From: a virus
Lineage: Duplodnaviria; Caudoviricetes
IMG/VR virus record: IMGVR_UViG_3300034071_002361
Coordinates: 1-57,495 of that record
Strand: one strand, 5' to 3'
Length of the DNA: 57,495 nucleotides
Shown here piece by piece: positions 26,823-48,516 of this stretch. The position numbers and the translations under genes were made by a program. The notes beneath the pieces were generated by a model, which was not told the origin of the DNA, ran no database searches, and saw only the letters and a program-made list of their open reading frames with translations. The stretch's first letter is position 1; each line of letters starts with the position of its first letter.

Positions 26823-27026
26823 ATGGAGAGCCCGAACATCCGAATCAACCGCCACTCATCCGAGTGGCGCCAGATCCGCGCCTACATCGAAGCGCGGCTA
26901 ATCGAGCACCGGAAGGCGCTTGAAAGTTCGCTCGTGCCAGTCGAGAGAGTCCCCTCGCTGCGCGCCCGAATCGACGAGCTGAATCTGCTGCTCAAAGCCA
27001 ACCCCGAGGAGCAAGACCATGAGTGA
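26823..27026 (+). CDS. Small conserved protein between portal and scaffold
   Basis: SSEWRQIRAYIEARL...LRARI.EL pattern. Confidence 0.7.
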   Translation: MESPNIRINRHSSEWRQIRAYIEARLIEHRKALESSLVPVERVPSLRARIDELNLLLKANPEEQDHE

Positions 27027-30463: not shown

Positions 30464-31165
30464 ATGAACTTCCTCGAGCTTGTCCAGAAAGGCTATGGCA
30501 TTTCGCGTGCCGGGCAGGGCGACATCTTTGCCGAGCCGGACACCGTCGCCAACCAGACTGGCAAGCTCAGGGAGTTCGTGGAGTTCGTCGCGATGTCGTG
30601 GGAAGACATCCAGAGCAGCCAGCCCTCGTGGCGCTTCATGCGTCGCGAGGGAACGCTGACCTTGCCCCAAGGCCAGACGACCGTCTCCCCGTCCGCCATC
30701 TCCGACTTCGAGTCGATCGTGCTCGCTGATCCGGATGGCCGCGGCCGCTCCATCTCCCTGTATCGCGAAAGCGTGGCCGATGAGCAGACCGTCCGCTTCG
30801 TTGCTTGGGGCGACTGGCAGCAGAGCTACCTGCAGCGCGGAGCCCGCGGCGTTGGCCAGCCGGGCTGCTTCACCATCAAGCCTGACGGAGACCTCGAGTT
30901 CGACCTCGAGGCTGATGCCGCTTACACGGTGAAGCTGTACTACAAGCGCAGCCCTCAGCCGCTTCAGCAGGACACCGATGAGCCGATCATGCCGGCCAAG
31001 TACCACAAGGCGATCTTCTGGTGGGCTCTGGCCAACTACTACTGCACGAGTCGTCCGGACGCCAAAGCGTTCGAGGCGTCGTGCCGCAGGAACCTCAATC
31101 GCGAGATGCGAGTCCTGCATCACGAGCAGCTCGATGAGCACCTCAGCGTCGAGGTGACGGCGTGA
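30464..31165 (+). CDS. Head-tail adaptor (tail tubular protein A-like)
   Basis: MNFLELVQ...W.DIQ....WRFM...D..YTV...Y...PQ.L..DTDEP.MP..YH.AI. Confidence 0.8.
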   Translation: MNFLELVQKGYGISRAGQGDIFAEPDTVANQTGKLREFVEFVAMSWEDIQSSQPSWRFMRREGTLTLPQGQTTVSPSAISDFESIVLADPDGRGRSISLYRESVADEQTVRFVAWGDWQQSYLQRGARGVGQPGCFTIKPDGDLEFDLEADAAYTVKLYYKRSPQPLQQDTDEPIMPAKYHKAIFWWALANYYCTSRPDAKAFEASCRRNLNREMRVLHHEQLDEHLSVEVTA

Positions 31166-34100: not shown

Positions 34101-34200
34101 GGTCGACAGCTTGACCGACAGCGAGGCGCCGCACAGCCTGCAGTACATCGAACCGTTCATGGAAGCCCGTGGCGACAGCCGCGGCAACCGAGGAAACTGA
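31162..34200 (+). CDS. Tail nozzle/DNA stabilization protein (tubular protein B-like) with inserted domains
   Basis: LTGGLDLTTP...PG.L..CENYE....GY.R.DGFERFDG N-terminus and KNQYRLYF.DG C-terminal motif. Confidence 0.8.
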   Translation: MSRAPAIALTGGLDLTTPAPLARPGTLADCENYEVGSRVGYTRVDGFERFDGRPGVAEFRCLRLSISGISGSFSLRDRIIFATGMPALGHQGVDGYIASISQSGSSATISVIFAGGMSDPIVPDTITNQTGTGSANCTAFESLSVPDGEQQDFDYALLQLATSRRAEIETVPGRAGSDVLGGFLFKNNVYAIRDLPRVNFEGGYYTDSDEGLHITIDLVEYKILDVVVLGEQSGYVVYDPVPASGTDAVGIDSPTLASLPLSGSLSSGFVGIPYSDGLSVSGGVAPYFWSLAESDTGAPAPPEPGDLSEVTLQSEVTPAALWRATSTGWSRVDLGREMAFTGGTSFLRNTPRALSLDAADVKTSAWLFPTTSTINTVSAPNINADDGTTASLGGADGQTVLCKGFSFTSIPAGAQILGIEVRIERQSNVGNKAFDGAVILTGVSGGVQNKAAGEWPTALTLATYGGADDLWGSENITRDVLGDPEFGVMFLVRRSNPANAIVATIDHVSIRVTYAERAGMPAFLWDGTSDVPVTIINVQALSGDFGASSAAGYITMTAAVNSAKPRLVKVGDQIRSAAAGGGNLLGVVASRDRPIFLPGQFEVDNNRSAYRWEQYNFFGEDRYTSMYGVSGAGPAMSFDGTNAIKIRVPLSPGQDVPRHIAKHGTMLALGYFSGAVIFSAVGEPTEMRAAFGAAAIEVGDRLTALAPGGGDALTIVCEASTYVLRGLSQSVFTQNTVSARRGAIEYTLADPGKTIIADSFGLFIADSPESFEPANRQYMSEPVQPWLRERLQATISNEQRFLRPVAALAVRSKNQYRLYFRDGRVLTMTMSNAGIEITKQRLYSGSEGLVVRNIWTGIDASGRERIFCSFNAAKQGYVFEADVGRSFDGEAVSAFFVLNPYNAGSISQDKVIDRWFFGGTGGYASLQWSVGVDGKYPDGGQQQADLGRASDDSTPQNGSRRAAKMGSVDRPAEGKDFLLRVDSLTDSEAPHSLQYIEPFMEARGDSRGNRGN

Positions 34201-34201
34201 A

Positions 34202-35563
34202 ATGGCGCAGCCGCTCATGTCCAATGCCGCAGTCATGCTCCCGCAGGAGGAGAAGCTGGGCTCGGTCACCCCGGCCATGACGCCGGCGCCGGTGCCGACC
34301 CCGGGCGTTGGGATGGTCAGCAGCAAGGCGTCGGTCGGCCCTGACTCGCCGCCGAACTTCGAGCGCAGCCGCGGGCCGATGCCGGGCGACGGGACAATCC
34401 CGATGCCCAAGCCCAATGCCGCGCCCGGCGAGACGCCGATGCCCAAGTACCCCGGGACGGTCGACTCGGCAACCCCGATGCCCAAGCCGCGCCCGCAGCT
34501 CATGGGCTCTGGCACGGCGCCGTCCGCGCCTTCGACGACGGCCGGCCTCGGCGTCGCGAGCGTTGGCGACTGGCGAGCTGGGTTCAGCGAGACGGATCGT
34601 GCAGCGGTCACGCGCTCTGTGCAGGACAGCGAGCTGACCAGCAAGCAGCTCAGCCGCCTGATCGACGAGAACGGCCGCTACATCCAGCAGGCCCGGCTCG
34701 GCGCTCGCGAGGGCGCCGCTTCGCGCGGCATGCTGACCTCGAGCTTCGCTGCTGGCGCAGCCGAGCGTGCGGCCATCGATGCGGCGATGCCTATCGCTCA
34801 GGCTGACGCCAACACGTACTTCAGCACCTCGTCCGAGAACATGGCCGCCCAGAATCAGGACGCCATGCAGGATCAGGCTGGCGGCCGGCAGCTGCTCGGG
34901 CAGGACATCGGCCTTCGTGCCAATGCGTCGGAGTCGGCTCTCAATCGCCAGTTCCAGAGTTCCGAGAACGAGGTCGGTCGACAGTTCCAGAGCAGCGAGG
35001 CTGCAACCGAGCGAGGCTGGCGCAGCACCGAGGCCGGGCGGGATCGCGATCAGCAGACGCGGCTCGAGGATCTCCGTCGCCAGTTCGAGGCGTCGCAGAA
35101 CGAGCAGGAGCGAGCGCGCCTCCGCGAGGCGATGAACAACGAGATGGCGTTCAATCGCGAGCAGGGCGACCTGACGCGACAGCAGCAGCGCGTCAGCGAG
35201 TACAACAACCTGATGGCCAACCGCGAGGCACAGCTCTCGCAGCAGCTTTCGGCGATCTTCAGCAACACCAACATGAAGCCGGAGGAGCAGGCACGCGCCG
35301 CAGAAAACGCCCGCGCCGTGTTCACCTCGACGACCGCCAGCTTCAATGCCGCGTTCGCGCAGGGCGTGCCTTCGATCTTCATGCGGCCCTACGAGATGCA
35401 GCAGCCTGCCCCGGGCACGCAGCCGACGACCCCGGTGGCGCCGACGACGCCGGCGGGAACGGGCCTCCAGCCCGGGTTCACCCCGATCCCCGGCACTGAT
35501 CTGGCCAGCGGCCCGGGCGGCGTGATCCGCCGCGCCATCGATGTGGCGCTCGCCCGCGGATGA
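34202..35563 (+). CDS. Internal virion/ejection protein
   Basis: PMPK repeats, SRG.L.SS.AAGA...A.IDAA.PIAQADA motif, Q/E/R coiled coil. Confidence 0.7.
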   Translation: MAQPLMSNAAVMLPQEEKLGSVTPAMTPAPVPTPGVGMVSSKASVGPDSPPNFERSRGPMPGDGTIPMPKPNAAPGETPMPKYPGTVDSATPMPKPRPQLMGSGTAPSAPSTTAGLGVASVGDWRAGFSETDRAAVTRSVQDSELTSKQLSRLIDENGRYIQQARLGAREGAASRGMLTSSFAAGAAERAAIDAAMPIAQADANTYFSTSSENMAAQNQDAMQDQAGGRQLLGQDIGLRANASESALNRQFQSSENEVGRQFQSSEAATERGWRSTEAGRDRDQQTRLEDLRRQFEASQNEQERARLREAMNNEMAFNREQGDLTRQQQRVSEYNNLMANREAQLSQQLSAIFSNTNMKPEEQARAAENARAVFTSTTASFNAAFAQGVPSIFMRPYEMQQPAPGTQPTTPVAPTTPAGTGLQPGFTPIPGTDLASGPGGVIRRAIDVALARG

Positions 35564-36006
35564 TTGCTCGCGCAGCCACCATGAACGATCTTCCGGCGAT
35601 CATGGAGTACAGCCGGCCAGCCTGCGAGTCGTCGCCGACTTGGGCCGGCCTCGGCTACAACTCGGTGATCTGGCGGCGGACGCTGATGTCGTCGTTCAAG
35701 GATCCGACGATGTGCGTGTTCGGCGCGTTCGCCGGCGGCAAGTGCCACGGCATTCTCGTCGGCATGTCGATGCCGGCCCCGTGGTGCGCTGGCTTTCTCG
35801 CCAGCGATCTCGTGTTCGTCGCTGATCGAGCCGGCGACAAGCTGCTCGACCTGTTCATCGAGTGGTGCGACAAGCGGAAAATCAGGCGAATGGACATGGG
35901 CGTCAGCGACACTGGTCGCGACGAGGCGAAGGATCGGCTGTTCAAGTCGAAGGGCTTTGGTCGCGCTGGCGGCGTGTACTTCAGGATCAACGAGGTGGCG
36001 AAATGA
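35560..36006 (+). CDS. GNAT-fold acetyltransferase-like protein
   Basis: IARAATMNDLPAI...DLVFV.....G.KLL..F.EWC...LF.SKGF...G. Confidence 0.75.
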   Translation: MIARAATMNDLPAIMEYSRPACESSPTWAGLGYNSVIWRRTLMSSFKDPTMCVFGAFAGGKCHGILVGMSMPAPWCAGFLASDLVFVADRAGDKLLDLFIEWCDKRKIRRMDMGVSDTGRDEAKDRLFKSKGFGRAGGVYFRINEVAK

Positions 36007-36866
36007 GTGCCGTGAAAAAGGCCGTCAAGAAGGTCGGCAAGTGGGTCAAGAAGAACTGGAAGAAGATCGTCATCGCAGTGGCGATCGTCTTCACTGCCGG
36101 CGCTGCTGCCGGCGGCCTCGCTGCGATGAAGGGCGCGTTTGCCGCCAAGGGGATCATGGGAGGCATCGGGGCCACCCTCAAAGCCGGAGCTGCCGCCATA
36201 GGCAGCGTGGCAACAGGTGGAGGCATCGCTGGCGCTCAGGCCGCTGCAGGCGGCGTGCTCAATGCTGCGGCGGGCACCGCTGCGGCGGGCACTGCGGGCG
36301 CTGCCGGCGCCGGCGCGGCCAAGCTGGCCACGACCACCGCCGCCAAGGGAACCGCCACTGCGGCGACCAAGGGCGCGGCTGCGGCAACCACCAAGGGCGC
36401 AGCCGCGGCCAGCGGTAAGGCCGCAGCAGCGACGACCGCCAAGACCGCGGCCACAACCGCCAAGGCAGCAACTACTACGGCGTCGACCAAGGCAGCTGCG
36501 GCCACGACGGCAAAAGCCGCCGCGCCGGCAGCGACCAAGGTGGCGGCTGCGACCGCGCCTGCCGCGAAGGCAGCGGGCGCCGTTGGTGCAGCTGCTCCTG
36601 CTGCCCCGGCCGCCGGCGGGTTCATGAACTCGCTGGGCGGTCAAGCGGTCATCCAAGGCGGGCTCGGGCTGCTGTCCGGCTACATGCAGGGCCGGGCCGC
36701 TGACGATGAGCAGCAGGATCAGGGCTACTACGGCGTCGGCCTCAACGGCAACGCCAGCGTCGGCCCGGAGCGCCTGTCGTTCCGCGACCAGAACATCACC
36801 GGCGGCACGCAGACGTGGGCACGTCCGAGCCGACAGCTCATCTACGATCCGGCCACCGAGGGCTGA
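36003..36866 (+). CDS. Ejection/DNA pilot-like protein with Ala/Thr/Lys low-complexity stalk
   Basis: KKAVKKVGKWVKKNWKK then hydrophobic Gly/Ala segments. Confidence 0.65.
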   Translation: MSAVKKAVKKVGKWVKKNWKKIVIAVAIVFTAGAAAGGLAAMKGAFAAKGIMGGIGATLKAGAAAIGSVATGGGIAGAQAAAGGVLNAAAGTAAAGTAGAAGAGAAKLATTTAAKGTATAATKGAAAATTKGAAAASGKAAAATTAKTAATTAKAATTTASTKAAAATTAKAAAPAATKVAAATAPAAKAAGAVGAAAPAAPAAGGFMNSLGGQAVIQGGLGLLSGYMQGRAADDEQQDQGYYGVGLNGNASVGPERLSFRDQNITGGTQTWARPSRQLIYDPATEG

Positions 36867-36868
36867 CC

Positions 36869-37465
36869 ATGGACCCGATGCAGGAACAGCAGCAGACCGG
36901 TGGCGACGACGCCGACACCCAGACCTTCAAGCAGATGGTCAATGGGCTCGTCGGCCACATGTTTGGCGCCGGCGAAGAGGGCATCAAGAAGCGCCTGCGC
37001 GATGGGGCCCAGCAGCTCCCGCAGACCATGGGCACGCTCGCGCTGACGATGATCGAGGAGGCGACGCGCCAAGCTGACGAGGCCGGCGCCCAGTACGACA
37101 CCGACATGCTGCTTGGCGTGGCCTCGGAGGTGATCGACAACCTCATCGACATGGCTGATGCCATGGGCCTGATCGAAGGAACCAGCGACGACAATCTCCG
37201 CGAGGACGCGATGATGCACGCCGTCGAGTCCTACGCCATGACGGCGGAGCCCGGCAGCGAGGAGCAGGAGGCGGCGCAGCAGATGCTGCAGCAGTTCCAG
37301 CAGGACGGCACGATGGCCGAGGCCGAGGCGACCATCGCGGAGATGGGCAAGCGCCGCGGCGTCGACCCGTTCTCGGATGGCGACGCGCCCGTTGACGGCG
37401 GCCAGTCGGCTGGCCAGCCTGCCCCCGGTACGGCCGGTCCCCGGCCACTGATGCAGGGAGCCTGA
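36869..37465 (+). CDS. Hypothetical acidic virion-associated protein
   Basis: 198 aa in the ejection cluster. Confidence 0.65.
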   Translation: MDPMQEQQQTGGDDADTQTFKQMVNGLVGHMFGAGEEGIKKRLRDGAQQLPQTMGTLALTMIEEATRQADEAGAQYDTDMLLGVASEVIDNLIDMADAMGLIEGTSDDNLREDAMMHAVESYAMTAEPGSEEQEAAQQMLQQFQQDGTMAEAEATIAEMGKRRGVDPFSDGDAPVDGGQSAGQPAPGTAGPRPLMQGA

Positions 37466-37467
37466 TC

Positions 37468-38118
37468 ATGTCGAAGCGCGCACGCCGCATGGCACTGATG
37501 GGCGCAGCTCAAGGCGCGCTGCAGGGCGTGCAGACGTGGCTCAATGCGCAGATCCAGCAGCAGCGAGAAGATCGTCTTGCTGCCATTCGCGCGCAGGAGC
37601 GTGGCGAGGATCGCGCATTCCAGCGCGAGACCATGCAGATGCAGGCCGACCAGCGTCAGGCCGAGCGGGGCGAGGACCGCGAATTCCAGACCACGATGCG
37701 CGAGGGTGACCGCGAGTTCCAGCGGCAGACGCTCGAGATGCAGCAGCGGCAGCAGCTGGAGTTGGCAGATAAGTCGCGCGATACGCAGCTTGCCGTCGCC
37801 GGCACGTATCGCCAGCCGCAGGAATCTGCGCCGCTTCGCTACCTCGTGAACCGCAATGGCAACGAGGTCGAGGTGGCCGGCAACGAGCGCCAGCCCGGCG
37901 ATGTCACCATGGGCGCGATCACTGCCAGTGGCGGATTTGTTCCGATTCGTCGCAGCCAACCCGGCAGCCAGTCGAGCGGCGGACGTGACCGCCCGCTGAT
38001 GGGCGAGTCGACTTCGCGACCGGGCGGAGTGATGGCTGACGAGTCCACCGGCGGCGGCGTCGAGAAGCCCGTCTGGGACCAAAAGCTCGGAAGGTTCGTT
38101 CTTCCGTCTCAGCAGTAA
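37468..38118 (+). CDS. Ejection protein-like (Q/R/E-rich)
   Basis: GAAQGALQG N-terminus; ERGEDR.FQ repeats. Confidence 0.65.
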   Translation: MSKRARRMALMGAAQGALQGVQTWLNAQIQQQREDRLAAIRAQERGEDRAFQRETMQMQADQRQAERGEDREFQTTMREGDREFQRQTLEMQQRQQLELADKSRDTQLAVAGTYRQPQESAPLRYLVNRNGNEVEVAGNERQPGDVTMGAITASGGFVPIRRSQPGSQSSGGRDRPLMGESTSRPGGVMADESTGGGVEKPVWDQKLGRFVLPSQQ

Positions 38119-38154: not shown

Positions 38155-41100
38155 ATGCGCCGCATTCAGGTGCCGTCGGGACGGATCTTCGAGTTCCCAA
38201 CCGACGCGACGGACGACCAGATCAACGAGTTCCTATCGGGCCTTGATCAGCGCACGCTTTCCGAAGAGCGCAGCACAGCTCGAGCTGCTGGCGACATCGG
38301 CGTCGACTTCGCAGCCGGCGTCGCTGGCATGGTCCCGACCGCGATCGATGCGGTGCAGGTCGACGAGGTGCCTCGCGCTGTAACTGCCGAAGGCCGGGCG
38401 CGCGCCCTGATGGGCGAAACCGCTGGCGACATCGTCGGTGCAATCCAGAGCGTCAGCCCGGCTGGCGACATCGAGAAGCGCACGATTCGCGCCACGGAGA
38501 TGGCTGCCGGCGGACTGCGCGGCGCGGGCGAAACGCTTCAGGAAGTTGGCGCCATGCCCGGCCGCCCCGTCGAGCAGGCCCTGACCGCAACCGGCATCCC
38601 GGGCGCAGCGCTCATCGGCAGGAACGTCGACAAGATCGGTGGCTTCTTGCAGCGCGCTGGCGACTTCATCGGCGGCGACATTGCTGAGGCGCGCGCCACG
38701 GAGAATGCGCAGCGCGTTGCTGCCGGGCAGAAAACGCTCGAGCAGGAATCGCAGCAGCAGGTCACCAGTCGAGCGGCTAACGCGGTCAGCGGCTTTGTCG
38801 ACGATCAGGCGAACAACCTGCGAAGCGATTACGCCAATGCCATCTCCGCCGAGATGGGCAAGGCCATTGATGGCGGCGTCGGCACCACTGCCGAGTTCAT
38901 TGCCGACAGCCCGGGCGAGGCACTCAGCGCTGTGCTCGGCGGCTCGGCGGCCTACCTGATCCCGGGCCTTGCCTCGGCCCGTCTGGCCAAGATCGCCGGC
39001 GCGTCGGAGGGTCTTGCCACGGCCGCGGCGGTGCAAGGCACCAGCGCCGTCGTATCGGCGCAGGGCGCCGAGGGGGCCCGAGACCTCGTCATGGGCATGA
39101 GCGAGGAGCAGCTGCTCAGCGTGCCCGAGTACATGGCCGAGCGTGACCGCGGCCTTGACCACGAGCAGGCCCAGCTCGCCATCGCCAACAAGGCGTACGA
39201 CGCCGCTGCAGGCGCAGGCTTCGCGCTGAACGCCACCACTGGCGCCGTCGCCCAGCGCCTTGGCCTCGCCCCGGTCGAGCAGCTCATGGCCCGTGGCGGC
39301 CGCATCCCGGGTGTTGGCCGCGTCGCCGGCGCCGTGGGCTCTGCGATTCGCGAGGCCCCGGGCGAGGCGCTGCAGGGCGCGGGTGAGGCCCTTGGCCAAA
39401 ACCTTGGCGGCGTCGCCGCCGGGACCATGGAGGGCCGCGACGCCTTCGAGGGCGTCGGTGCCAATGCGCTGCTCGAGGCCGCGGCCGGCGCCGGAATCGG
39501 CGGCATCACCGGCTTCGTTGCCCCTCAGGCCAAGGCGGCCGAGGTCACCAGCCAGCCGACCGACCAGACCAACCCGGCGGCTCAGGCCGCCCGGGACGTG
39601 GCAGAGATCTACAGCGCGGCTCGTCAGGCCGAGCAGGAGCGCCCCAGCGCGCCGCCTGCCACCGCCCCCGTCGACGCTGCGCCAGAGCAGCCGGCGCCCG
39701 CCACAGCCTCGCCTGCTTCGCTCATGGGCGGCTTCGCCGCCGCGACCCCGCTCGACCAGAACGCCAAGCCCGCTGACGAACTCGAGGCCCAGCTCCAGCA
39801 GGCCGGCGCTGCCCCGGTCATCCGCCCTGCCGCGGAGCCCGAAGGCATGGCTGCGCTCGAGGCCTTCCAGCGTCAGCAGGCTGCACAGAATCCCCCGGCG
39901 TCGACCTCCGCTCCGTTGGGCGAAACGCCTCAACATGACGGCGCGGTAACGCCGGGGGCCCAATCGCGTCCGCGGCCGCGCGACCTGCCGGCCGTCGTGC
40001 CGTCGCCGAAGCGCGCCAAGGTTCCGCTGCGCGAGCTGAAGGCCGCCGGCCAGACGCAGCTCCCGCCGATCCGCCCGGCAGTTCCCGTCCGCGCCCCAGT
40101 CGTGGCGCCGCCCCCGGACGTTGCCGCCGCGGTGGCCGCGCAGCCTGACCGCATCAGCTTCAGCGACAACGACGTCGTCGCCCGGGCCAAGCTCGAGCAG
40201 ACCTTCCTCGGCTTCGGCATCGAGCCGGAGCTGGCGCGCACCATGGCGCAGAACGACACCGTCCCCAGTGGCGCCATCCGCGACAGCGTTACCGGCGGCT
40301 TCGACGGTCGCGCCGACGGCGTCAAGTCCGGCACCCTGCAGCGCGCGATCGACCACGTCGACCAGACGGGCGAGGATTCGTTCTTCGTCAGTGCCGACAT
40401 CAGCAACCTCGGCGGCCTGAACAAGTTCCACAACGACGTGGCCGACGAGGCGAACCGCGACTTCCGCGGCCTGACCGACGTCCTGCTGGAGGAGCTGCGC
40501 GCCACCGGCGCCGACGTCGTCCCCATGCGTACCGGCGGCGACGAGGTCGGCTACGTGGTCGTGAACGCTTCGCAAGAAGCTGTCAATGCGGCCACCGAAC
40601 GAGCACGGTCCCGTGCCGTGGAGTATGCTCGGTCCCGGGGCTTCGACCAGATCCCGCACACCAAGGCGTCCCGCACCGACAAGGGCGTGACTTTCCACAC
40701 CGGGGTGGCGCGCATCCAGCCGGGCCTGACCGTCGAGGAGATCGCCCGCGAGGCAGACCTCGGCGTGAATGCCAGCAAGAATGCGGCCTCGCCAACCAAG
40801 GAGACGAGCACCAATGAGCGACGAGAAGCGACTGGAGAGGCTGGGCCTCTCGCATCTGGCGGACAAGCCGGACGAGCTGCAGGCGGAGACGCAGCGGCAG
40901 CTGGCGGAACTGCGGGCGAAGTCGGATCGACTGCGCAGCGAGCGGATGGCCAGCGCCCCGGCGCCGCGCCGCAGCCCGATGGCGGCAGCCCCGGCCAAGT
41001 AGCCGGCGGCACTGCGCCGGCTTCCGCTGGCGCACGCATCGACCCCTTCGTCGAGTCGACCGTTCGCGCGCTGGGCCTGAGCCCGGATGCTGTGGCCATC

Positions 41101-44100
41101 GTCGACGCGCCGTCCGATCTGCCTGCCGGCGTCAGCAGCCGCGGCCTCGACGGCAAGACTGAGGGCATCTACGACCCGAAGACCGGCAAGGTCTACCTGT
41201 TCCGCGGCGCGCTGGTCAGCCCTTCGCGCGCCGTCTGGGTCACCCTCCACGAGCTGGCCGGCCACAAGGGCCTGCGCGCCCTGCTGCCGCAGGAGCAGTT
41301 TGCCCGGACCATGCAGGAGGCCGGGACCAATCCGACCATCCGCGGCATCGCCATGGCCATGATGGCCGAGGCCCGGGCTGAGGCAGAGGCCGGCGCCGCC
41401 GGCGCGCGCCCGGCCACCGACCCGACGCTGTTCATCGAAGAGGCGCTGGCCGAGTACACGGCTGCGTGGTTCACCGGCGACATCGATGCGCTGATGGATC
41501 GCTACGGCGATGCCGTGATGTTCTCGCGCCAGCAGACGGCCGAGATCGATTCGCGCATTGAGCAGGAGCGCAAGGCTGCTGAGGGCGTGGTCAAGCGCGC
41601 CATCGCCGCGGTGAAGCGCGCCCTCTTCAACACGCCGGACGTCGGCACTCGCCTGCGCATGAGCGACGCCGAGGTGGTCGGACTCATCAGCAACGCTTAC
41701 AAGTCGCTGCGCGCTGGCCAGAAACAGGCGGCTGAAGGCGCGACCATGCAGAGCCGCGTGCCGCTCTCGTCGAAGTGGATGACCGAGGACTTCGCCAAGG
41801 CGCGCAAGCAGCTTGGCCTGAGTGTCGACGGCGAGAACAAGGTGCGCAGCGTTGGCGAGGCGCTCGATGCCTACGTCGCCAAGCGCAATGGGCGAATCGA
41901 ACCGAAGGATCGCAGCCCCGAGGCGATGACCAAGATCGCCGCCGCGATGGCCGACGAGGTCATGGTGCAGATCGGCGACACCGCGCAGCAGACCGGCTCC
42001 GGCGTCGGCTGGTATTCGGTCAACTACCCGAACGCGGTGCGCCGCCTTGCGTCGCGATTCCCTGAGCTGGACAGCGACAGCGAGGCTGCAGCTCGCGGCA
42101 TGGTCAATGCCGATTCCGCTCGCAACCTGTTCACGATGATCCTCGCCGTGACGTCGAACGGCGAGAAGGTGCGCCAGAACCTGAAGATGGCGACGGAGAT
42201 GTTCGCCGCCTTCCGTGATGGCGCCAGCCTGCGCGACGCCATGCCGGGCACTCGCCGCGCCGAGGCTCTCGAGAACAACATCGAGGTGATCGATCAGCTC
42301 ATCTCTCGCTTTGGCATGGACGGCATTCGCCAGCACCTGCTGTCGGAGATGACCGTCAAGGAGATCAATGCCGAGCTGCGCAAGCGCGGCGAGAAGCCGA
42401 GCAGCGACTACACGGCAGACATGACGCTGCCGCGATCGGCCCTGTACTTCGGCGCCAAGCTGGGCGCGTTCTACGCGAACCTCGCTGGCTCCACTGGCTA
42501 CCTGACCATGGACCTGTGGTGGTCGCGCAGCTTCAACCGCTACCGCGCGAACATGCTCCCGGCTCCGACGGATAGCGGCATGGCTGCGCTTCGCGGCCTG
42601 CTTGGCCTGCCGGACAGCGCCAGCATGGAGCAGCTCATCGAGGCCGCTACGCCGTACTGGAAGGCCTACAAGGATCGCGGCTATAAGGACGGCAGCGACA
42701 TCGAGAAGAAGGCCAACACCTTCATCAAGGCCGCCGTGCTCGAGCTGAACGAGGCGCCGACCAGCGCGACCGAGCGCAAGTTCATGGTCGAGACGGCGAT
42801 CGAGGCCCAGCGCCGCCTTCGCCGCCGCGGCGTCGACCTCACGCTGGCCGACATTCAGGCCGCCCTTTGGTACTATGAGAAGCGTCTGTACGACGGCCTT
42901 GGTGTTCGCGGCCGTGACGACATTGGCTACGAGGAGGCCATCAATGAACAAGCCCAAGGTGATCGACCCGACGGACCCGCTGCACGAGGCGGTGGATCGG
43001 GCGGTGATGTCGTCGAACCCGGCCGATCGGGCGCAGAAGCTGATGGCGCTCGCGGGCGTCGAGCCGGCCGAGGACTCGCCCGAGCAGGGCGCGATGCGCG
43101 TGGCCAAGATGCGGGCGCAGAACCGCAGCCTGCTCTCCAGAGCCGCCTCCCCGGCGCGCCGGTAGTCCGTGGCTTCGACGGGCCGGACCCCCGGCTCGTC
43201 GCTGTTGCTGAGCAGTACGCCCGGGACAACGGCATCCAGCTCCGTCGACAGGCGGAGTACGTCAAGGTCGACCCCGAGCGCGCCAAGCGCATCGCCGACG
43301 CTTACGAGGCGATGGAGCACGCGCCGAATGACCCGCGCGTCCGCGCCGCCTACCGCTCGCTGATCGACCAGACGCTTGCCCAGTACCGCGCGCTCGAGGC
43401 CGCGGGCTACCGCTTCTGGTTCATCGATCTCGAGAGCGAGGCTGGCCAGCAGTACACCAGCTCGCCGTGGAACGCGATGCGCGACATCCGCGCCAACCAG
43501 CGCATGGGCGTGTTCCCGACGGCCGAGGGCTTCGGCAGCGGGGCCAGCGACCTCGATGTCGCCGACAACCCCATGCTCGAGGACACCGGCATCCGCTGGC
43601 CGTTCGGTGGCCCGGACGGCGAGGCCAAGCCGGTGCTGGCCAACGACCTGTTCCGTGCCGTGCATGACGCCTTCGGCCATGGCATCGAGGGCTCTGGCTT
43701 CCGCGCCGACGGCGAGGAGAACGCGTGGCAGGCCCACGTCCGCCTGTTCACTGGCGACGCGGTGGCGGCCATCACCAGCGAGACGCGCGGCCAGAACTCG
43801 TGGCTCAACTTCGGCCCGTTCGGTGAACGCAACCGCACCGCCTCCGCCGAGGAGACGGTGTTCGCAGACCAGAAGACCGGCCTCATGCCAGAATGGACGT
43901 GGCTCGAAGGTCGAGCTGGCGACATGCAGGAGGACGCCAATGAACAAGAGCAAGCCGACACCCGCGCCGCCGCCGATGGACAGCCCGGAGTTCGACGCGA
44001 TGGTGCGCCGGGCAGTGCAGGCGGACCTCTCCAGTCGCGCAGCTTCCCCGAAGACGCCCCGTCCTTCCGGCAGCGCAAGCAGCAAAAAGACGCGGTAAGC

Positions 44101-47100
44101 GCGAACGGCATCCACTACAGCGGCACCGCCGGGCTCACTGCGCTCGACGGCAAGTTCGCTGGAGCTGGCTCTGCCGGCAATGAGCGTCGCCGATTCGGCA
44201 CTGGCCAGTACGGTGCTCGCGCTGAGCCGGGCGACACCGGCCGCCGCCTGTACTTCTACGTGCAGGAAGGCGACACGCCGCCGCGCAAGGAGGACGTCGT
44301 CGCCGGCAACAACCGCTACGCGGTCGAGCTGACGAACCTCTACGACTACGAGGCAGACCCGCGCGGACTGCGCGAGGATGCCGGCGCGAACATGGACTAC
44401 CTCGAGGAGCTGGTGAACGACGCCGGCTTCGACGGCCTTCTGCTGCCTCCGCTCGCTGGCATCGAAGGCAAGATCGCGATCCTGCACGGGCTCAAGAAGA
44501 AGGTGCCGATCATCAGCGCGCCGCTGCAGTCGCGCAGCAAATCGGCGATCGGCGACGAGTGGGGCGCCAGCCACTCCGGCAGCTCGGCCATCACCACGGC
44601 GTCGATGCAGATCATGGCGATCCCGGGCCGCGAGATGGAGCAGTGGCGATCGCGTGAGAGCGTCGATCGACTCGAGCGCATGGCCGTCACTGCCCTGTCC
44701 GAGATTGCCGCTGATCGCGAAGGCTCCGAGGAGCGCCTGTACCACGGCTTCGAAGATGTCGACGGCCGCGAGTTCCCGATCGGTCGAGTGGTCAAGCTCG
44801 GCTTGACGTCTGCCAGTGGCGACCTCAGCAGCTCCGCCTCGTATGGCATCCGCCTCGATGAGGCTGACCAGCGCGGCACGCCGACGGCCTATGAGTTCCC
44901 TGTCGGAACTCCGATGTCGGCATACGGAGTCTGGAGCGAGGCCGACGCTCGCGAGTTCGGGCACCGCTATTCGGAGGCCATCGTTGCCGGCGAGTACGAG
45001 GTCACCGGAGTTCGCGAAGAGCGCGCAAGCAACTGGCGCCGCACCCCTGTGCGCGTCGTGTCGCTCAAGCCCCTTCGCGTCTTCGATCCTCAGGCCATGC
45101 AGTGGACGCCTGTCGGTGACGCGCCGCTGCAGTCGCGCCAGACGCAGGACGCCCGCGCTGCCGCAGCAGCTCTCCGCACGCGCAAGTCGCAGCTCGCTCG
45201 CGAGCTGACCACGAACCTGACCACTGCCGAACAGGTCAAGGCGTGGACGCAGCGCGCTCGCCTGTTGATCGGCGAGGTGTCGACGTCGCGCGACTTCGCC
45301 GAAGAGATCGTCGAGGCCAAGCGCATGCTGACGCCTGAGCGCCGCGACGCACTGCAGGGCGACCGCGAGGCGCTGAAGCGTTACGACGCGGTGCGCGACA
45401 TGATCGCGATCGCCGAGCAGGGCATGTCCGCAGTCCGCTCGAAGCAGGCGCAGGCCAATCGCCTGCTGGACAAGGTCGAGCGCCGCACGTCGACGATGTC
45501 GTTGGCCGAGCGCGAGGCGCTGGTCGACGAGCTGACTGGCGCACTCGATGAGGCAGAGCGTGCCTACGTCGCCGCAAAGCGAATCGCCGACTGGCGCGCG
45601 GCCAACGACTACAAGGTGATCAAGGCGCACAAGAAGCGCAGCGACATGCTCGACTTCCTCGCTGCCGAGGGCTACCAGCAGGGCAGCTTCCTGTGGGCAA
45701 GCAACGGCATCAAGGATCTCGCGGCCAAGGCGAAGCGGTACTTCCGCCGCCTGCTGCAGGACAAGATGATCGACATGCGCGACGTGCAGGACGAGATCGA
45801 GCGCCAGCTCGGCCGTTCGATCGACGACCTGCAGAACGTGTACCGCATGGAGAACCTGATGCACGGCAAGACCGCCGATCGCATCGAGTCCTTCCGCGTG
45901 AAGCTGGTCGAGCCGCTGAAGGCTGCGGTCAAGGCGACTGGCCTGTCTCAGGACGCCGTCGACAAGTACCTCTGGGCGAAGCACGCCAAGGAGCGCAACG
46001 CCAAGATCCGGGCGATCCGCCCGGGCGTGGACGACGGCAGCGGCATGACCGACGCCGAGGCCGATGCCCAGCTCGCCAGCTACACCCCGGAGCAGCTCGC
46101 CTCTCTGGAGGCCGTCAGCCGCCGCGTGGAGGCCGTGAGGCGCGCCTCGCTGCAGACGCTGGTCGAGGCAGGGCAGCTGACCGCGGAGGCCGCACAGGCG
46201 ATCCAGAGCAGCTACAGCCACTACGTCCCGCTGCGCGGCAAGGACGGCGAGGGCGAGGAGCGCGTCGGCGGCCGCGGCACTGGGCAGGGCATCAGCGCCG
46301 GCAGCCCGGGCGTGCAGCGCGCGCTCGGCCGCAAGACCCCGCCGAAGAACATCCTCGCCGAGCTTGTCGGCGACGGCGAGCGCGCCATCGTGCAGGCCGG
46401 CAAGGCCGAGGTCGGGCGCTCCCTGCTGCGTCTGGTGCTGTCGTACCCGAACCCGGGCCTGTGGTCGCTCGAGCCGGTCGTGCTCGAGCCGAAGTTCAGC
46501 GAGGCGACCGGCGAGGTGTACCTGTCGATCGGCACGCCGGACGACGCCGAGACGGTGATCGTGAAGCACAACGGCAAGCCGTACCGCGTGCAGATCAAGC
46601 ACCCGCGATTGGTCGAGGCGCTGAAGAACACTGGCGTCACTGGCACCGAGTGGGCGGTGAAGTACATCGGCTGGGTCAACCGCTGGTTCTCCGCGGTCTT
46701 CACCCGGTTCAACCCGGGCTTCGTGCCGGTGAACCTTGCGCGCGACCTGCTGCAGGGCGCGAGCGGCCTGTACGCGGAGCTGGGCGCCAAGAGCGCCGGC
46801 GTTGTGCTGGCCAACTGGCGCGCCGCCTTCGCTGCTTCGTATCGCGATTCGCGCGGCCAGCGCGGCGACAGCACCATTGCCGACGACAAGAAGGCCATGG
46901 TCGACTGGGCCCGCGAGTTCGCAGAGCAGGGCGGCAAGACCGGCTACACCGCAATGGAAGACTCGGACACGCTGCAGCAGAAGATCGAGGACTCGATGCT
47001 CCCGATCGCTGACGTCGTGCGCAAGCACAAGGGCAACCCGATCCCGGTGCTCGCACAGGTCTTCGAGCGCAGCGACACGCTTCAGTGGATCGAGGACGTC

Positions 47101-48516
47101 AACGACGGCGTCGAGAATGCTCTGCGCATCGCGACCTACGCTCACCTCCGCAAGGACAAGGGCTGGTCGAAGCAGCGTGCAGCGACCTACGCGAAGGAGA
47201 TGACGGTCAACTTCAACCGCAAGGGCATGGCTGGCTCCTTCATAAACTCGCTGTACCTGTTCTTCAATGCGGCCGTGCAGGGCTCGCGTCGCACACTGCA
47301 GCTCATGAACCACCCGAAGGTCAGGGTCATGCTCGGCGGTCTGGCCATGGGCCAGTTCGCCTTTGCCATGGCGCTCGGCATGCAGACGTTCGGCGATGAC
47401 GACGACGAGACGCTGTGGGAGAAGATCCCCGACCACGCCAAGCGCCGCGGCTTCATCATCCCGCTGGGCTTCGACGACGACGGCACCGCCCGCTACATCT
47501 CGATCCCGATGCCGTTCGGCTTCAACGTGTTCCCGGCGACTGGCGGCTACCTCGCCAACTACCTGAGCCCGAACTGGCGCGGCCGCATGGGCGACTCGCC
47601 GATCAAGCACGGCACCGAGGCGATGGCATACATGACCTCGACTGCGATCGACGCAGTGAGCCCTGTCCCGGTCGGCGAGGAGGGCTGGTTCCAGCCGACG
47701 CTGGTCCGCCTCTACACCAACCTCGAGCGCAACAAGGACGACCTCGGCCGGCGCATTCGCCCGAGCGAGGACTTCAGTGAGTTCGACCTGCCGCGCGCCG
47801 CGCTTTACACGCCGGGCACGCCGGAGTCGCTGGTGCTTATCGCCAAGGGCCTGAACCGCCTCGGCGGCGGCGATGACCTGACCCCGCCGAAGCTTGCGCC
47901 AAGCTTCACCGACGTCAGCCCGAACGACCTCGAGTACCTGCTTGGCCAGTTCACTGGCGGCCCGGGAACGGTGCTGCTGCAGTCGACGCGTGCAGCGACG
48001 CGCGAGCTGGCGATCGGCGACATGGCCAGCTTCGACATCCCGGTCGTGCGTGCGGTGTCCGGTGGCGTGCGCCCTGAGCAGCGCGAGGCTGCGCGCTTCT
48101 ACGACAACAAGGACACCTACGAGCGCAACCTCGAGCGCATCCAAGTGGCCTATGCCGAAGGTGGTATCGAGGAGATGCGTCGCGTGCAGGCCGAGCTTGG
48201 CCCGGCCTACGCGGGCATCGATCCGAAGATTCGCAAGACGACCACGGAGAACGGCGAAGCCGGCACTGCGTTCGTCAACGCCAGCGGCCAGCCTCAGCTG
48301 GCGCCGCTGGAGGGCAGCGTGCTTGAGGAGTACCGCGCCGCGGAGAGGGATCTGCGCGAGATCTCAGCGGCAATGCGCGCGGTCTACAACAACCGCGACC
48401 TCGGCCCTATCGAGCGCCAGCGCCAGCTCGTCGAGCTTCAGCGCAAGCGCGAGGATGCGACCAAGGAGTTCAACCGCCTGATGTCCCGGGCGAATGTCGC
48501 AAGGTCGGGCGGCTAG
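38155..48516 (+). CDS. Giant polyvalent ejection-type protein: GGDEF, HExxxH metallopeptidase, glycosylase-like, HDxxGH, two ART-like and LPD38-like C-terminal domains
   Basis: 3453-aa ORF with GAGG SD; motifs RTGGDEV, HELAGH..EEALAE, GWY/LAVTS/TMDLW/QAALW, HDAFGH, IHYS/LYFY, LYHG/TSAS/SEAIV, NP.F...N..RD, TVNFNRKG, LYLFFNAAVQG, IPMPFG. Confidence 0.85.
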   Translation: MRRIQVPSGRIFEFPTDATDDQINEFLSGLDQRTLSEERSTARAAGDIGVDFAAGVAGMVPTAIDAVQVDEVPRAVTAEGRARALMGETAGDIVGAIQSVSPAGDIEKRTIRATEMAAGGLRGAGETLQEVGAMPGRPVEQALTATGIPGAALIGRNVDKIGGFLQRAGDFIGGDIAEARATENAQRVAAGQKTLEQESQQQVTSRAANAVSGFVDDQANNLRSDYANAISAEMGKAIDGGVGTTAEFIADSPGEALSAVLGGSAAYLIPGLASARLAKIAGASEGLATAAAVQGTSAVVSAQGAEGARDLVMGMSEEQLLSVPEYMAERDRGLDHEQAQLAIANKAYDAAAGAGFALNATTGAVAQRLGLAPVEQLMARGGRIPGVGRVAGAVGSAIREAPGEALQGAGEALGQNLGGVAAGTMEGRDAFEGVGANALLEAAAGAGIGGITGFVAPQAKAAEVTSQPTDQTNPAAQAARDVAEIYSAARQAEQERPSAPPATAPVDAAPEQPAPATASPASLMGGFAAATPLDQNAKPADELEAQLQQAGAAPVIRPAAEPEGMAALEAFQRQQAAQNPPASTSAPLGETPQHDGAVTPGAQSRPRPRDLPAVVPSPKRAKVPLRELKAAGQTQLPPIRPAVPVRAPVVAPPPDVAAAVAAQPDRISFSDNDVVARAKLEQTFLGFGIEPELARTMAQNDTVPSGAIRDSVTGGFDGRADGVKSGTLQRAIDHVDQTGEDSFFVSADISNLGGLNKFHNDVADEANRDFRGLTDVLLEELRATGADVVPMRTGGDEVGYVVVNASQEAVNAATERARSRAVEYARSRGFDQIPHTKASRTDKGVTFHTGVARIQPGLTVEEIAREADLGVNASKNAASPTKETSTNERREATGEAGPLASGGQAGRAAGGDAAAAGGTAGEVGSTAQRADGQRPGAAPQPDGGSPGQVAGGTAPASAGARIDPFVESTVRALGLSPDAVAIVDAPSDLPAGVSSRGLDGKTEGIYDPKTGKVYLFRGALVSPSRAVWVTLHELAGHKGLRALLPQEQFARTMQEAGTNPTIRGIAMAMMAEARAEAEAGAAGARPATDPTLFIEEALAEYTAAWFTGDIDALMDRYGDAVMFSRQQTAEIDSRIEQERKAAEGVVKRAIAAVKRALFNTPDVGTRLRMSDAEVVGLISNAYKSLRAGQKQAAEGATMQSRVPLSSKWMTEDFAKARKQLGLSVDGENKVRSVGEALDAYVAKRNGRIEPKDRSPEAMTKIAAAMADEVMVQIGDTAQQTGSGVGWYSVNYPNAVRRLASRFPELDSDSEAAARGMVNADSARNLFTMILAVTSNGEKVRQNLKMATEMFAAFRDGASLRDAMPGTRRAEALENNIEVIDQLISRFGMDGIRQHLLSEMTVKEINAELRKRGEKPSSDYTADMTLPRSALYFGAKLGAFYANLAGSTGYLTMDLWWSRSFNRYRANMLPAPTDSGMAALRGLLGLPDSASMEQLIEAATPYWKAYKDRGYKDGSDIEKKANTFIKAAVLELNEAPTSATERKFMVETAIEAQRRLRRRGVDLTLADIQAALWYYEKRLYDGLGVRGRDDIGYEEAINEQAQGDRPDGPAARGGGSGGDVVEPGRSGAEADGARGRRAGRGLARAGRDARGQDAGAEPQPALQSRLPGAPVVRGFDGPDPRLVAVAEQYARDNGIQLRRQAEYVKVDPERAKRIADAYEAMEHAPNDPRVRAAYRSLIDQTLAQYRALEAAGYRFWFIDLESEAGQQYTSSPWNAMRDIRANQRMGVFPTAEGFGSGASDLDVADNPMLEDTGIRWPFGGPDGEAKPVLANDLFRAVHDAFGHGIEGSGFRADGEENAWQAHVRLFTGDAVAAITSETRGQNSWLNFGPFGERNRTASAEETVFADQKTGLMPEWTWLEGRAGDMQEDANEQEQADTRAAADGQPGVRRDGAPGSAGGPLQSRSFPEDAPSFRQRKQQKDAVSANGIHYSGTAGLTALDGKFAGAGSAGNERRRFGTGQYGARAEPGDTGRRLYFYVQEGDTPPRKEDVVAGNNRYAVELTNLYDYEADPRGLREDAGANMDYLEELVNDAGFDGLLLPPLAGIEGKIAILHGLKKKVPIISAPLQSRSKSAIGDEWGASHSGSSAITTASMQIMAIPGREMEQWRSRESVDRLERMAVTALSEIAADREGSEERLYHGFEDVDGREFPIGRVVKLGLTSASGDLSSSASYGIRLDEADQRGTPTAYEFPVGTPMSAYGVWSEADAREFGHRYSEAIVAGEYEVTGVREERASNWRRTPVRVVSLKPLRVFDPQAMQWTPVGDAPLQSRQTQDARAAAAALRTRKSQLARELTTNLTTAEQVKAWTQRARLLIGEVSTSRDFAEEIVEAKRMLTPERRDALQGDREALKRYDAVRDMIAIAEQGMSAVRSKQAQANRLLDKVERRTSTMSLAEREALVDELTGALDEAERAYVAAKRIADWRAANDYKVIKAHKKRSDMLDFLAAEGYQQGSFLWASNGIKDLAAKAKRYFRRLLQDKMIDMRDVQDEIERQLGRSIDDLQNVYRMENLMHGKTADRIESFRVKLVEPLKAAVKATGLSQDAVDKYLWAKHAKERNAKIRAIRPGVDDGSGMTDAEADAQLASYTPEQLASLEAVSRRVEAVRRASLQTLVEAGQLTAEAAQAIQSSYSHYVPLRGKDGEGEERVGGRGTGQGISAGSPGVQRALGRKTPPKNILAELVGDGERAIVQAGKAEVGRSLLRLVLSYPNPGLWSLEPVVLEPKFSEATGEVYLSIGTPDDAETVIVKHNGKPYRVQIKHPRLVEALKNTGVTGTEWAVKYIGWVNRWFSAVFTRFNPGFVPVNLARDLLQGASGLYAELGAKSAGVVLANWRAAFAASYRDSRGQRGDSTIADDKKAMVDWAREFAEQGGKTGYTAMEDSDTLQQKIEDSMLPIADVVRKHKGNPIPVLAQVFERSDTLQWIEDVNDGVENALRIATYAHLRKDKGWSKQRAATYAKEMTVNFNRKGMAGSFINSLYLFFNAAVQGSRRTLQLMNHPKVRVMLGGLAMGQFAFAMALGMQTFGDDDDETLWEKIPDHAKRRGFIIPLGFDDDGTARYISIPMPFGFNVFPATGGYLANYLSPNWRGRMGDSPIKHGTEAMAYMTSTAIDAVSPVPVGEEGWFQPTLVRLYTNLERNKDDLGRRIRPSEDFSEFDLPRAALYTPGTPESLVLIAKGLNRLGGGDDLTPPKLAPSFTDVSPNDLEYLLGQFTGGPGTVLLQSTRAATRELAIGDMASFDIPVVRAVSGGVRPEQREAARFYDNKDTYERNLERIQVAYAEGGIEEMRRVQAELGPAYAGIDPKIRKTTTENGEAGTAFVNASGQPQLAPLEGSVLEEYRAAERDLREISAAMRAVYNNRDLGPIERQRQLVELQRKREDATKEFNRLMSRANVARSGG
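40814..41002 (+). CDS. Nested +1-frame small ORF after the GGDEF domain (62 aa)
   Basis: AAGGAG SD 10 nt before ATG; MSDEKRLERLGLSHLADKPDELQAETQRQLAELRAK is helical and protein-like. Confidence 0.55.
   Translation: MSDEKRLERLGLSHLADKPDELQAETQRQLAELRAKSDRLRSERMASAPAPRRSPMAAAPAK
42944..43165 (+). CDS. Nested +1-frame small ORF after the glycosylase-like domain (73 aa)
   Basis: GAGGAGG SD 6 nt before ATG; MNKPKVIDPTDPLHEAVDRAVMSSNPADRAQKLMALAG. Confidence 0.6.
   Translation: MNKPKVIDPTDPLHEAVDRAVMSSNPADRAQKLMALAGVEPAEDSPEQGAMRVAKMRAQNRSLLSRAASPARR
43940..44098 (+). CDS. Nested +1-frame small ORF after the HDxxGH domain (52 aa)
   Basis: AGGAGG SD 6 nt before ATG; MNKSKPTPAPPPMDSPEFDAMVRRAVQADL. 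Confidence 0.55.
   Translation: MNKSKPTPAPPPMDSPEFDAMVRRAVQADLSSRAASPKTPRPSGSASSKKTR

Follow-up and report, generated by a model that had tools for sequence, protein, structure and literature searches.

A GGDEF-fold domain within a giant phage protein

We analysed a complete virus record of 57.5 kilobases (kb), IMGVR_UViG_3300034071_002361 of IMG/VR (Caudoviricetes; 67% G+C), whose full length of 57,495 nucleotides is referred to below as the window. Our subject is a domain resembling the GGDEF family of nucleotide cyclases, which lies within a giant open reading frame (ORF) of 3453 amino acids (aa) on the plus strand. An original prediction, made from the letters of the DNA, had placed a GGDEF (diguanylate cyclase-like) domain of a probable virion-injected protein at positions 40279-40785 (+); in translation, this stretch gives 169 residues, aa 709-877 of the 3453-aa ORF. 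The features of the giant gene that concern the domain are the following (residues are numbered along the giant protein):

38155..48516, + strand: giant ORF, 3453 aa (P0002), polyvalent or putative ejection protein (open frame, LPD38, PHROGs, gene context)
40168..40251, + strand: two-helix hairpin directly preceding the GGDEF fold, aa 672-699, predicted dimerisation element (model and complex prediction)
40276..40788, + strand: GGDEF-fold nucleotide cyclase-like domain, aa 708-878 (family hidden Markov model (HMM), 203.9 bits; sub-threshold Pfam match; model; fold matches)
40282..40296, + strand: D710-S-V-T-G714, counterpart of the DxLTG opening motif (family conservation; alignment to the 6d9m chain)
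40396..40422, + strand: D748-ISNLGGL-N756, metal-binding Asp and base-contacting Asn, with NLGGLN standing in for the canonical (D/H)-F-K-x-(I/V)-N (conservation; aligned with the D...N of DgcB and GacA)
40453..40455, + strand: N767, base-selectivity position, Asp in canonical enzymes and Ser348 in the Hypr enzyme GacA (family 'AN' versus 'GD' in 6tts and 'GS' in 6d9m)
40528..40548, + strand: R792-T-G-G-D-E-V798, signature hairpin with Val for Phe (conservation)
40651..40665, + strand: I-P-H835-T-K837, family-specific His-x-Lys loop (conservation; gap or unaligned in the DgcB chain)
40777..40779, + strand: K875, Lys of the C-terminal A-x-K-x-x-G-R-N motif (aligned to the Lys of 'ASKRGGRN' in 6tts)

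The motifs on which the domain had first been recognised (RDSVTGGF, FVSADISNLGGLN, RTGGDEV, VTFHTGVA and EIAREADLGVNASK) are all present in 40279-40785 (+), in the order claimed. One position needs correction: RTGGDEV spans 40528-40548, and the coordinates given earlier, 40534-40548, cover GGDEV alone. The comparison with the PF00990 HMM that had been proposed as a check came out on both sides of the line, in that the profile matches the domain (E 9e-5, 22.7 bits) but remains below its gathering score of 23.8. When run against the isolated stretch, the match extends from profile position 19 to ~157 of 161 (22.4-22.7 bits, E 9e-5 to 1.1e-4), and in a six-frame search of the whole record it is recovered at E 3.4e-6 (22.1 bits). 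Of the 15 aligned relatives, PF00990 picks up eight at E <= 0.01 (best 4.4e-13), so that the GGDEF homology of the window copy holds transitively. Moreover, a search of Protein Data Bank (PDB) sequences with a profile of the 15-member alignment found 11 at E <= 1, all 11 of them GGDEF proteins, and a single-domain phmmer search of the same database yielded one weak match, DosC (E 0.67). In the nearest ESM Atlas clusters, PF00990 occurs in 14-61% of the members. Taken by itself, the window copy offers sequence evidence that is weak but consistent.

For the structure, we obtained an AlphaFold2 model of a 226-aa construct from the 15-member alignment, with a predicted local distance difference test (pLDDT) score of 92.7 and a predicted template modelling (pTM) score of 0.87; the two hairpin helices (construct residues 13-27 and 32-40) were modelled at a pLDDT of at least 90. 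Foldseek matched the model to 88 PDB chains at E <= 0.001, of which the listed ranks 1-49 are all GGDEF at probability 1.00, headed by SiaD (7e6g, E 2e-9) and with WspR, PleD and DgcB also among the matches. Similarly, in a VIA-align comparison over 48,161 chains, ranks 1-33 are all GGDEF-domain proteins (Z 18.1 to 12.1), and the top matches (Z 16-18) are solved diguanylate cyclases, superimposed with a root-mean-square deviation of 2.1-3.0 over ~150-170 residues. To judge by the model, this settles the question of whether the domain belongs inside the GGDEF family proper, and not just in the wider palm-cyclase superfamily. The original prediction had named a missing GGDEF fold as its refutation; the fold was found, with solved GGDEF domains as its best matches, and the domain's GGDEF(-like) identity is borne out by fold, profile and conserved catalytic residues.

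After the GGDEF set, VIA-align placed a class III adenylyl cyclase (Z 10.0), Cas10 (9.8) and the Panoptes mCpol (8.4). Cas10 and mCpol (Panoptes OptS) are akin to the window domain in their related palm fold and in the theme of cyclic (oligo)nucleotides in phage-host conflict, as described in PMC12657218, but they are host defence enzymes whereas the window domain is phage-borne, and they score Z 9.8 and 8.4 against 16-18 for the closest GGDEF proteins. A Cas10, mCpol or class III cyclase identity was rejected on these Z scores (at most 10.0 versus 16-18).

Active-site anatomy and conservation across the family

An exhaustive HMMER search with aa 660-885 against 1.84 billion representatives (clusters at 50% identity) retrieved 359 representative clusters at E <= 1e-3, 231 at E <= 1e-10 and 60 at E <= 1e-30. 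The best 150 of these 359 proteins are nearly all giant (up to 7849 aa) or fragments. The hosts of the family range over Lysobacterales, Burkholderiales, Paracoccus, Nocardia and Mycolicibacterium, and members are found in bacterial chromosomes of Nocardia, Trinickia, Variovorax and Mycolicibacterium. In the relatives, the GGDEF module is partnered with ART-PolyVal, InPase, NUDIX, LPD39, RadC and SLT, and such shuffling among architectures is the behaviour of polyvalent proteins as Iyer et al. 2017 define them (PMC5512222). Among 50,697 phage records, megablast with the whole gene and tblastn with the GGDEF domain both returned zero matches, so that no named phage in this set carries a close copy. 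The closest viral relative (G001; locus L038, G001:C1:24000-36500) encodes a protein of 2801 aa with 82% identity in the GGDEF domain, and the closest cellular match is a fragment, 80% identical, in a Silanimonas metagenome-assembled genome, which hints at a Silanimonas-like host.

Chromosomal giants of Mycolicibacterium, Mycobacterium and Nocardia (P0160-P0164; L024-L032, L034), 3463-5972 aa in length, carry the same GGDEF-like family, and those of Mycolicibacterium and Mycobacterium also carry glutamine-deamidase-like, alpha/beta-hydrolase and GNAT domains. Conjugative elements probably encode these mycobacterial and Nocardia giants as polyvalent proteins. Two family loci lie ~29 kb apart on one Nocardia contig.

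Residue conservation was counted over 182 domain copies from 148 of the 150 best-scoring family proteins; copies covering <140 query positions were left out (two proteins wholly, and the second copy of 10 others), and the class called single-copy below may contain proteins with partial second copies. The opening motif is kept in most copies (D710 in 168, Thr in 159 and Gly in 161), as is the metal Asp, D748 (160/182). The NLGGLN element that follows it (751-756) is conserved in 141-179 of the 182 copies per position, with N751 in 179, G754 in 175 and N756 in 177. A766 is kept in 163/182 copies, and next to it position 767, Asn in the window copy, is Asn in 139 and Asp in 39 of the 182. Within the signature hairpin, R792 occurs in 175 copies, G794 in 172, G795 in 171, D796 in 161 and E797 in 158, while its last position, 798, is Val in the window and L/F/V/I/M across the family. 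H835 and K837 (156 and 165 of 182) are both invariant in the 15-sequence alignment; farther along, G844 is found in 180/182 copies and K875 in 150/182, and the position four residues after this Lys (879), an Arg in canonical enzymes, is variable and not conserved in the family.

We aligned the domain by HMM to DgcB (6tts) and GacA (6d9m). In these alignments D748 corresponds to the first-strand metal Asp and N756 to the base-contacting Asn; N767 falls on the Asp of 'GD' in DgcB and on the Ser of 'GS' in GacA; GGDE falls on GG(D/E)E, and K875 on the Lys of A-S-K-R-G-G-R-N. The F-K of the canonical first motif is replaced within NLGGLN. In GacA, as described by Hallberg et al. 2019 (PMC6456294), Ser348 contacts the Watson-Crick face and Asn339 the sugar face, Asp374 binds Mg2+, and Glu375 takes the proton from the 3'-OH of the nucleotide that lies across the dimer, in the half-site of the other monomer; the aligned letters of 6d9m are, we infer, these numbered residues. 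By the same account, canonical enzymes have Asp at the position of Ser348, and in GacA the choice of Asp or Ser sets GTP-only versus promiscuous purine use (PMC6456294). The earlier remark that substrate-binding residues are altered in the window domain was therefore correct in substance, as Asn stands at the Asp/Ser selectivity position and the Lys of DxFK is replaced within NLGGLN.

An RxxD product-inhibition site (I-site) is common but not universal in diguanylate cyclases, and RxxD is also the usual site at which receptor-type GGDEF domains bind cyclic dimeric guanosine monophosphate (c-di-GMP). This site is not present here: the window copy reads R782-A-T-G785, and Gly takes the Asp position in 152/182 copies. 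Overall, the window domain is like canonical diguanylate cyclases (PleD, WspR, DgcB, SiaD) in its fold, DxxTG, metal Asp, base Asn, R-x-GGDE and C-terminal Lys, as well as in the two-fold dimer held by N-terminal helices that is predicted here. It is unlike them in having no sensor or receiver, no I-site, no first-motif Lys and an extra H-x-K loop, in carrying Asn for the selectivity Asp and Val for the final Phe, and in scoring just under the Pfam gathering score. With the Hypr enzymes (GacA, Bd0367), which make 3'3'-cyclic GMP-AMP (3'3'-cGAMP), it shares a non-Asp selectivity residue and a GGDE(F)-type, Asp-first hairpin, and the Hypr chain 6d9m is among its best sequence and fold matches. 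However, Hypr enzymes have Ser/Thr at the selectivity position where the present family has Asn, and they are receiver-regulated, cellular enzymes with an I-site region.

We next consider the catalytic core, by which we mean G794 and G795 together with acidic residues at 748, 796 and 797. Of 114 single-copy domains, 109 have this core intact, and the window copy bears the full consensus signature D-N-R-GGDE-H-K-K, like 84 of these 114. By local phmmer, 44 of the 150 best-scoring family proteins (e.g., P0004, P0006 and P0009) contain two tandem copies. For 34 pairs both copies were long enough to be scored: both cores are intact in 11, the C-terminal one only in 18, the N-terminal one only in 5, and neither in 0. 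N-terminal tandem copies often have lost the catalytic residues yet retain N751, N756, R792, H835 and K837. This pattern, in which one working copy is kept per pair as its partner decays, would be that of a pseudo-heterodimeric cyclase. That no tandem pair has lost both cores speaks against a role that is purely structural or confined to binding. The model of a tandem-copy relative, whose 32-residue linker is disordered, nevertheless reached a pTM of 0.82; the two copies would thus seem to pair in a defined, intramolecular manner. In the window itself, a six-frame search with the family HMM and filters off detected no second (degenerate) GGDEF copy, the next best stretch scoring -0.9 bits.

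GGDEF enzymes need two domains to join two nucleotides. We therefore turn to a complex prediction of two 226-aa constructs with two GTP and two Mg, run with our own alignment. The dimer scored 0.62 by ipSAE (interaction prediction score from aligned errors), against 0.06 for the best of three controls; among reference proteins, 20 of 30 with a solved pair of one chain attain this mark, as does 1 of 23 solved as a single chain. The alignment and the ligands lie outside that calibration, and the score may reflect the similar GGDEF dimers already solved. Between runs, contact agreement was at least 93% and the pLDDT of the partner at least 88. The predicted interface is symmetric and is formed mainly by the hairpin at aa 676-706 (construct 17-47, the lowest-error contacts), and it places G794-E797 of each copy opposite residues 763-767 of its partner, beside the selectivity Asn767. 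As modelled, it lends support to binding and fits the cross-dimer chemistry described for GacA (PMC6456294).

The carrier protein, its probable delivery and its junctions

The remaining features of the giant gene lie outside the GGDEF domain:

45505..48498, + strand: conserved C-terminal module, aa 2451-3448 (Pfam, PHROGs, tblastn)
47416-48048, + strand: LPD38 inside the C-terminal module, aa 3088-3298 (Pfam)
39961-39969, 41749-41757, 43138-43146, 44032-44040, 44527-44535 and 45130-45138, + strand: QSR sites, consensus x-[LM]-QSR (motif count)

The GGDEF domain is set in a polyvalent-protein context. Pfam identifies LPD38, a domain in common with phage-type polyvalent proteins, at aa 3088-3298 (E 1.8e-23, 84.1 bits versus a cut-off of 27), and PHROGs 14770, 616 and 10691, all of no known function, match aa 2451-3448. 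By tblastn, the C-terminal 1005 aa match 335 phage records at ~28% identity, 162 of them covering at least 80% of the query; the matches lie in short-tailed Shiga toxin (Stx) phages and in Vibrio, Ralstonia and Burkholderia phages. The protein matched in phiXuzhou21-Stx2a is a 2793-aa 'LPD38 domain-containing protein', aligned at its C-terminal end. The giant protein is thus like those of the Stx phages and their relatives in its C-terminal ~1000 aa (~28% identity over ~95%), in its size class (2793 aa in phiXuzhou21-Stx2a and 2811 aa for gp47 of phi24B) and in its late-region position, and unlike them in its N-terminal cargo, no GGDEF having been reported in the Stx-phage proteins.

Of note, a recent preprint describes gp47 as a 2811-aa protein with LPD5, LPD1, LPD38 and MuF-C (10.64898/2026.04.10.717836). 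According to the same source, gp47 is abundant in phi24B virions by proteomics and not visible in the reconstruction, and its authors propose an encapsidated ejection protein (10.64898/2026.04.10.717836). Upstream of the giant gene, on the same strand, the window encodes a terminase (22972-24429), a portal (24438-26819), a scaffold (27019-28038), a major head protein (28057-29094) and tail-like ORFs. The LPD38 architecture, the position after the structural module and the homology to a class of proteins reported in phi24B virions all uphold the earlier description of a probable virion-injected protein, and we regard the giant protein as a phage polyvalent protein that is probably carried in the virion.

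Among the neighbouring genes, a 464-aa ORF upstream (34169-35563, +) weakly resembles a PHROG annotated 'pilot protein for DNA ejection' (E 4e-4), and several nearby ORFs (31162-34200, 35862-38118) are without a PHROG match. An antisense ORF of 3303 aa (38233-48144, -) mirrors the giant gene and is without homology support; it was rejected as a real gene, all homology lying on the plus strand, and is a probable by-product of the 67% G+C. No tRNA genes were found in the window, and a promoter and terminator scan around the giant gene gave nothing that exceeded shuffled controls.

The giant protein contains six QSR tripeptides where 0.73 would be expected by composition, and LQSR occurs four times against an expected 0.05. 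All six QSR sites lie in linkers between folded segments, and the one at 41749-41757 (TMQSR|V) is the first boundary downstream of the GGDEF-bearing segment. In the closest viral relative, whose 2801-aa protein is 57% identical, QSR motifs stand at equivalent junctions, and where one window module is missing from it, two of them stand back to back (APMQSRAPVQSR). Since the motif is not enriched in 149 other family proteins (41 observed versus 43.4 expected), it is specific to the phage lineage of the window. These motifs may be candidate cleavage sites or module boundaries. The relative is without equivalents of window aa 1202-1937 and ~2145-2322, so whole modules have been lost or gained between close relatives.

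The QSR-bounded fragment that holds the GGDEF domain, aa 606-1201, also holds H-E-L-A-G-H at aa 1032-1037 (41248-41265, +), a motif with HExxxH and not HExxH spacing, in a folded-looking region (aa 960-1201) that comes straight after the GGDEF domain. This region has no Pfam or NCBIfam match; in the ESM Atlas it finds unnamed clusters only, one of which has LPD23 in 18% of its members, and H-E-L-A-G-H recurs after the GGDEF module in 5 of 149 relatives. By its sequence, the region could be a divergent metallopeptidase. A zincin-like metallopeptidase domain for self-processing is frequent, though not obligatory, in polyvalent proteins. In the prediction of Iyer et al. 2017, such proteins are split by metallopeptidase domains to yield working units (PMC5512222). 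Farther downstream, four QSR-bounded segments that we take for further cargo domains, aa 1202-1664, 1665-1962, 1963-2127 and 2128-2328 (41758-45138, +), have no useful Pfam or NCBIfam match; aa 1829-1895 match phrog_3170, of no known function.

Proposed mode of action, alternatives and significance

We lean, with moderate confidence in the chain as a whole, towards an unregulated nucleotide cyclase that acts right after entry; its packaging, dimerisation, activity, product and benefit are what we infer. On this proposal, the helical hairpin and the GGDEF-fold domain (together aa ~660-885) would constitute a constitutively active nucleotide cyclase, and the giant protein would be packaged in the capsid, leave with the DNA at infection and possibly be cleaved into its modules where the x-[LM]-QSR junctions lie. 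The domain would pair with a second copy via the N-terminal hairpin, bringing the GGDE hairpins face to face. Each half-site would then bind a purine nucleoside triphosphate, with Asn756 and Asn767 as base contacts and Asp748 and Asp796 as metal ligands, and Glu797 would act across the dimer, activating the 3'-OH of the nucleotide bound by the other subunit, so that a cyclic dinucleotide is formed. Without a sensor domain or an RxxD site to restrain it, the enzyme would swamp the freshly infected cell with this product. Our default guess for the product is c-di-GMP, given that the Asn contacting guanine is retained and that the close structures are diguanylate cyclases without exception; the selectivity-site Asn, together with the changes in the phosphate ligands, leaves room for cyclic di-AMP (c-di-AMP), cGAMP-type and other purine dinucleotides.

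Several observations weigh against this proposal. In profile comparisons, the window copy falls ~1 bit short of the PF00990 gathering score (23.8) and far under the cut-off of the NCBIfam GGDEF model TIGR00254 (E 2.5e-4, 20.8 bits versus 37.4), a curated profile cut-off being operational and not a biological feature. The Lys of D-x-F-K and the Arg after the C-terminal Lys, which are phosphate-binding residues of canonical cyclases, have no conserved counterpart in the family, the base-selectivity Asp is replaced by Asn in the window copy, and the GGDEF signature ends in Val in place of Phe. With one GGDEF copy in the window, two giant proteins or fragments must meet for activity, and the copies of the giant protein per virion are probably few. 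Neither EAL nor PilZ was matched in the phage proteins at E <= 0.1, and hence no partner points to c-di-GMP. Changes at the selectivity site can be costly, the substitution of Asp by Ser inactivating four of five canonical enzymes in the account of PMC6456294. Lastly, the homology of gp47 to the window protein is drawn from shared domain names and from matches in other Stx phages, and not from a direct alignment; its homology to the matched Stx-phage proteins is likewise drawn from shared size and domain names.

The alternative that survives best, to which we give a lesser but real share of belief, is that the domain is an active GGDEF-type enzyme whose product is not c-di-GMP but c-di-AMP, 3'3'-cGAMP, a mixed-linkage dinucleotide or linear pppNpN. 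The target of that product could be nucleotide-based defence or rival elements and not the host c-di-GMP network. It would be in keeping with the Asn (139/182) or Asp (39/182) at the position that governs selectivity in GacA (PMC6456294), with the family's own invariant NLGGLN and H-x-K elements around the pocket, and with a host range as diverse as Lysobacterales to Mycolicibacterium. The tandem pairs, 23 of 34 of which have one core, may likewise be read as pseudo-heterodimer-like, an arrangement that would give no symmetric two-bond product. On the other hand, the guanine-contacting Asn is nearly invariant (177/182), Asn is isosteric with the canonical Asp, and all of the nearest structures belong to diguanylate cyclases.

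Some GGDEF domains have degenerated and serve in binding or as ATPases (e.g., YybT), and the window domain might be a nucleotide-binding GGDEF fold of this kind that is not a cyclase, i.e., a sensor or sponge of GTP, ATP or a cyclic dinucleotide, a YybT/GdpP-like NTPase, or a structural or dimerising module. The sub-threshold matches of the curated GGDEF models, the missing Lys and Arg phosphate ligands and a predicted dimer interface that is mostly helical hairpin would all suit such a role. Even so, we consider it improbable: the two metal ligands together with the general-base Glu persist in 109 of 114 single copies, and each of the 34 tandem pairs has them in one copy or in both, a retention that is hard to explain without catalysis, and RxxD, the usual c-di-GMP receptor site, is absent (Gly in 152/182). 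Least probable in our judgement is an active cyclase that is not injected but acts late or in lysogeny (on biofilm, motility or exclusion), the giant protein being no virion component, for although family members reside in Nocardia, Trinickia, Variovorax and Mycolicibacterium chromosomes, the gene sits inside the late structural block and a protein of the same architecture class is found in phi24B virions (10.64898/2026.04.10.717836).

In the boldest reading, the family is a distinct, abundant clade of unregulated GGDEF-type cyclases, injected as cargo by phages and conjugative elements, that perhaps make a cyclic or linear dinucleotide other than c-di-GMP and jam or pre-empt nucleotide immunity within minutes of infection. 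We regard this as a long shot. The marks of such a clade may be the missing sensor and I-site, the selectivity Asn, the NLGGLN and H-x-K elements and the frequent tandem pseudo-heterodimers. Its product could compete at effector sites of CBASS (cyclic oligonucleotide-based antiphage signalling systems) or type III systems, or refill a decoy-nucleotide pool monitored by Panoptes-type guards.

The original prediction had also put forward that the phage may rewire host second messengers, with receptor shutdown, superinfection exclusion or interference with nucleotide-signalling defence as possible ends; an idea of this kind is already in print. Iyer et al. 2017 (J Bacteriol, PMC5512222) list GGDEF among the nucleotide-metabolism domains of polyvalent proteins, as 'not very widespread', and propose the same kinds of role, namely that such domains interfere with host nucleotide-based responses or activate responses against rival elements (PMC5512222). 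Like their polyvalent GGDEF, the domain described here is a cargo module in a giant phage or prophage protein, with predicted delivery and predicted use or jamming of cyclic nucleotides (PMC5512222). Their example is a prophage protein of Acetonema longum (PMC5512222). In contrast to 'not very widespread' (PMC5512222), the family defined here amounts to 359 representative clusters at 50% identity, and the main-text passages of that paper make no mention of NLGGLN, H-x-K, the selectivity Asn, the absence of RxxD or tandem pairs with one degenerate copy (PMC5512222). In the literature covered, to which most subscription journals do not belong, we found no bench test of a GGDEF domain in a polyvalent or ejection protein. 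What is new here is the family size, the pocket signature, the absence of regulatory elements and the pattern of tandem-copy decay.

Phages destroy or sponge host immune nucleotides. A phage that brings a ready-made virion cyclase into the cell, as has been predicted since 2017, would reverse this nucleotide-destroying tactic. The x-[LM]-QSR junctions may help to show how giant ejection proteins come to be divided into functional pieces, and the ~226-aa unit of hairpin plus GGDEF domain is a compact test object, with all catalytic residues, a confident model and hundreds of relatives, including tandems with one dead copy. The identity of its product would tell c-di-GMP physiology, in which motility, pili and biofilm bear on receptor display and superinfection, from nucleotide-based defence.

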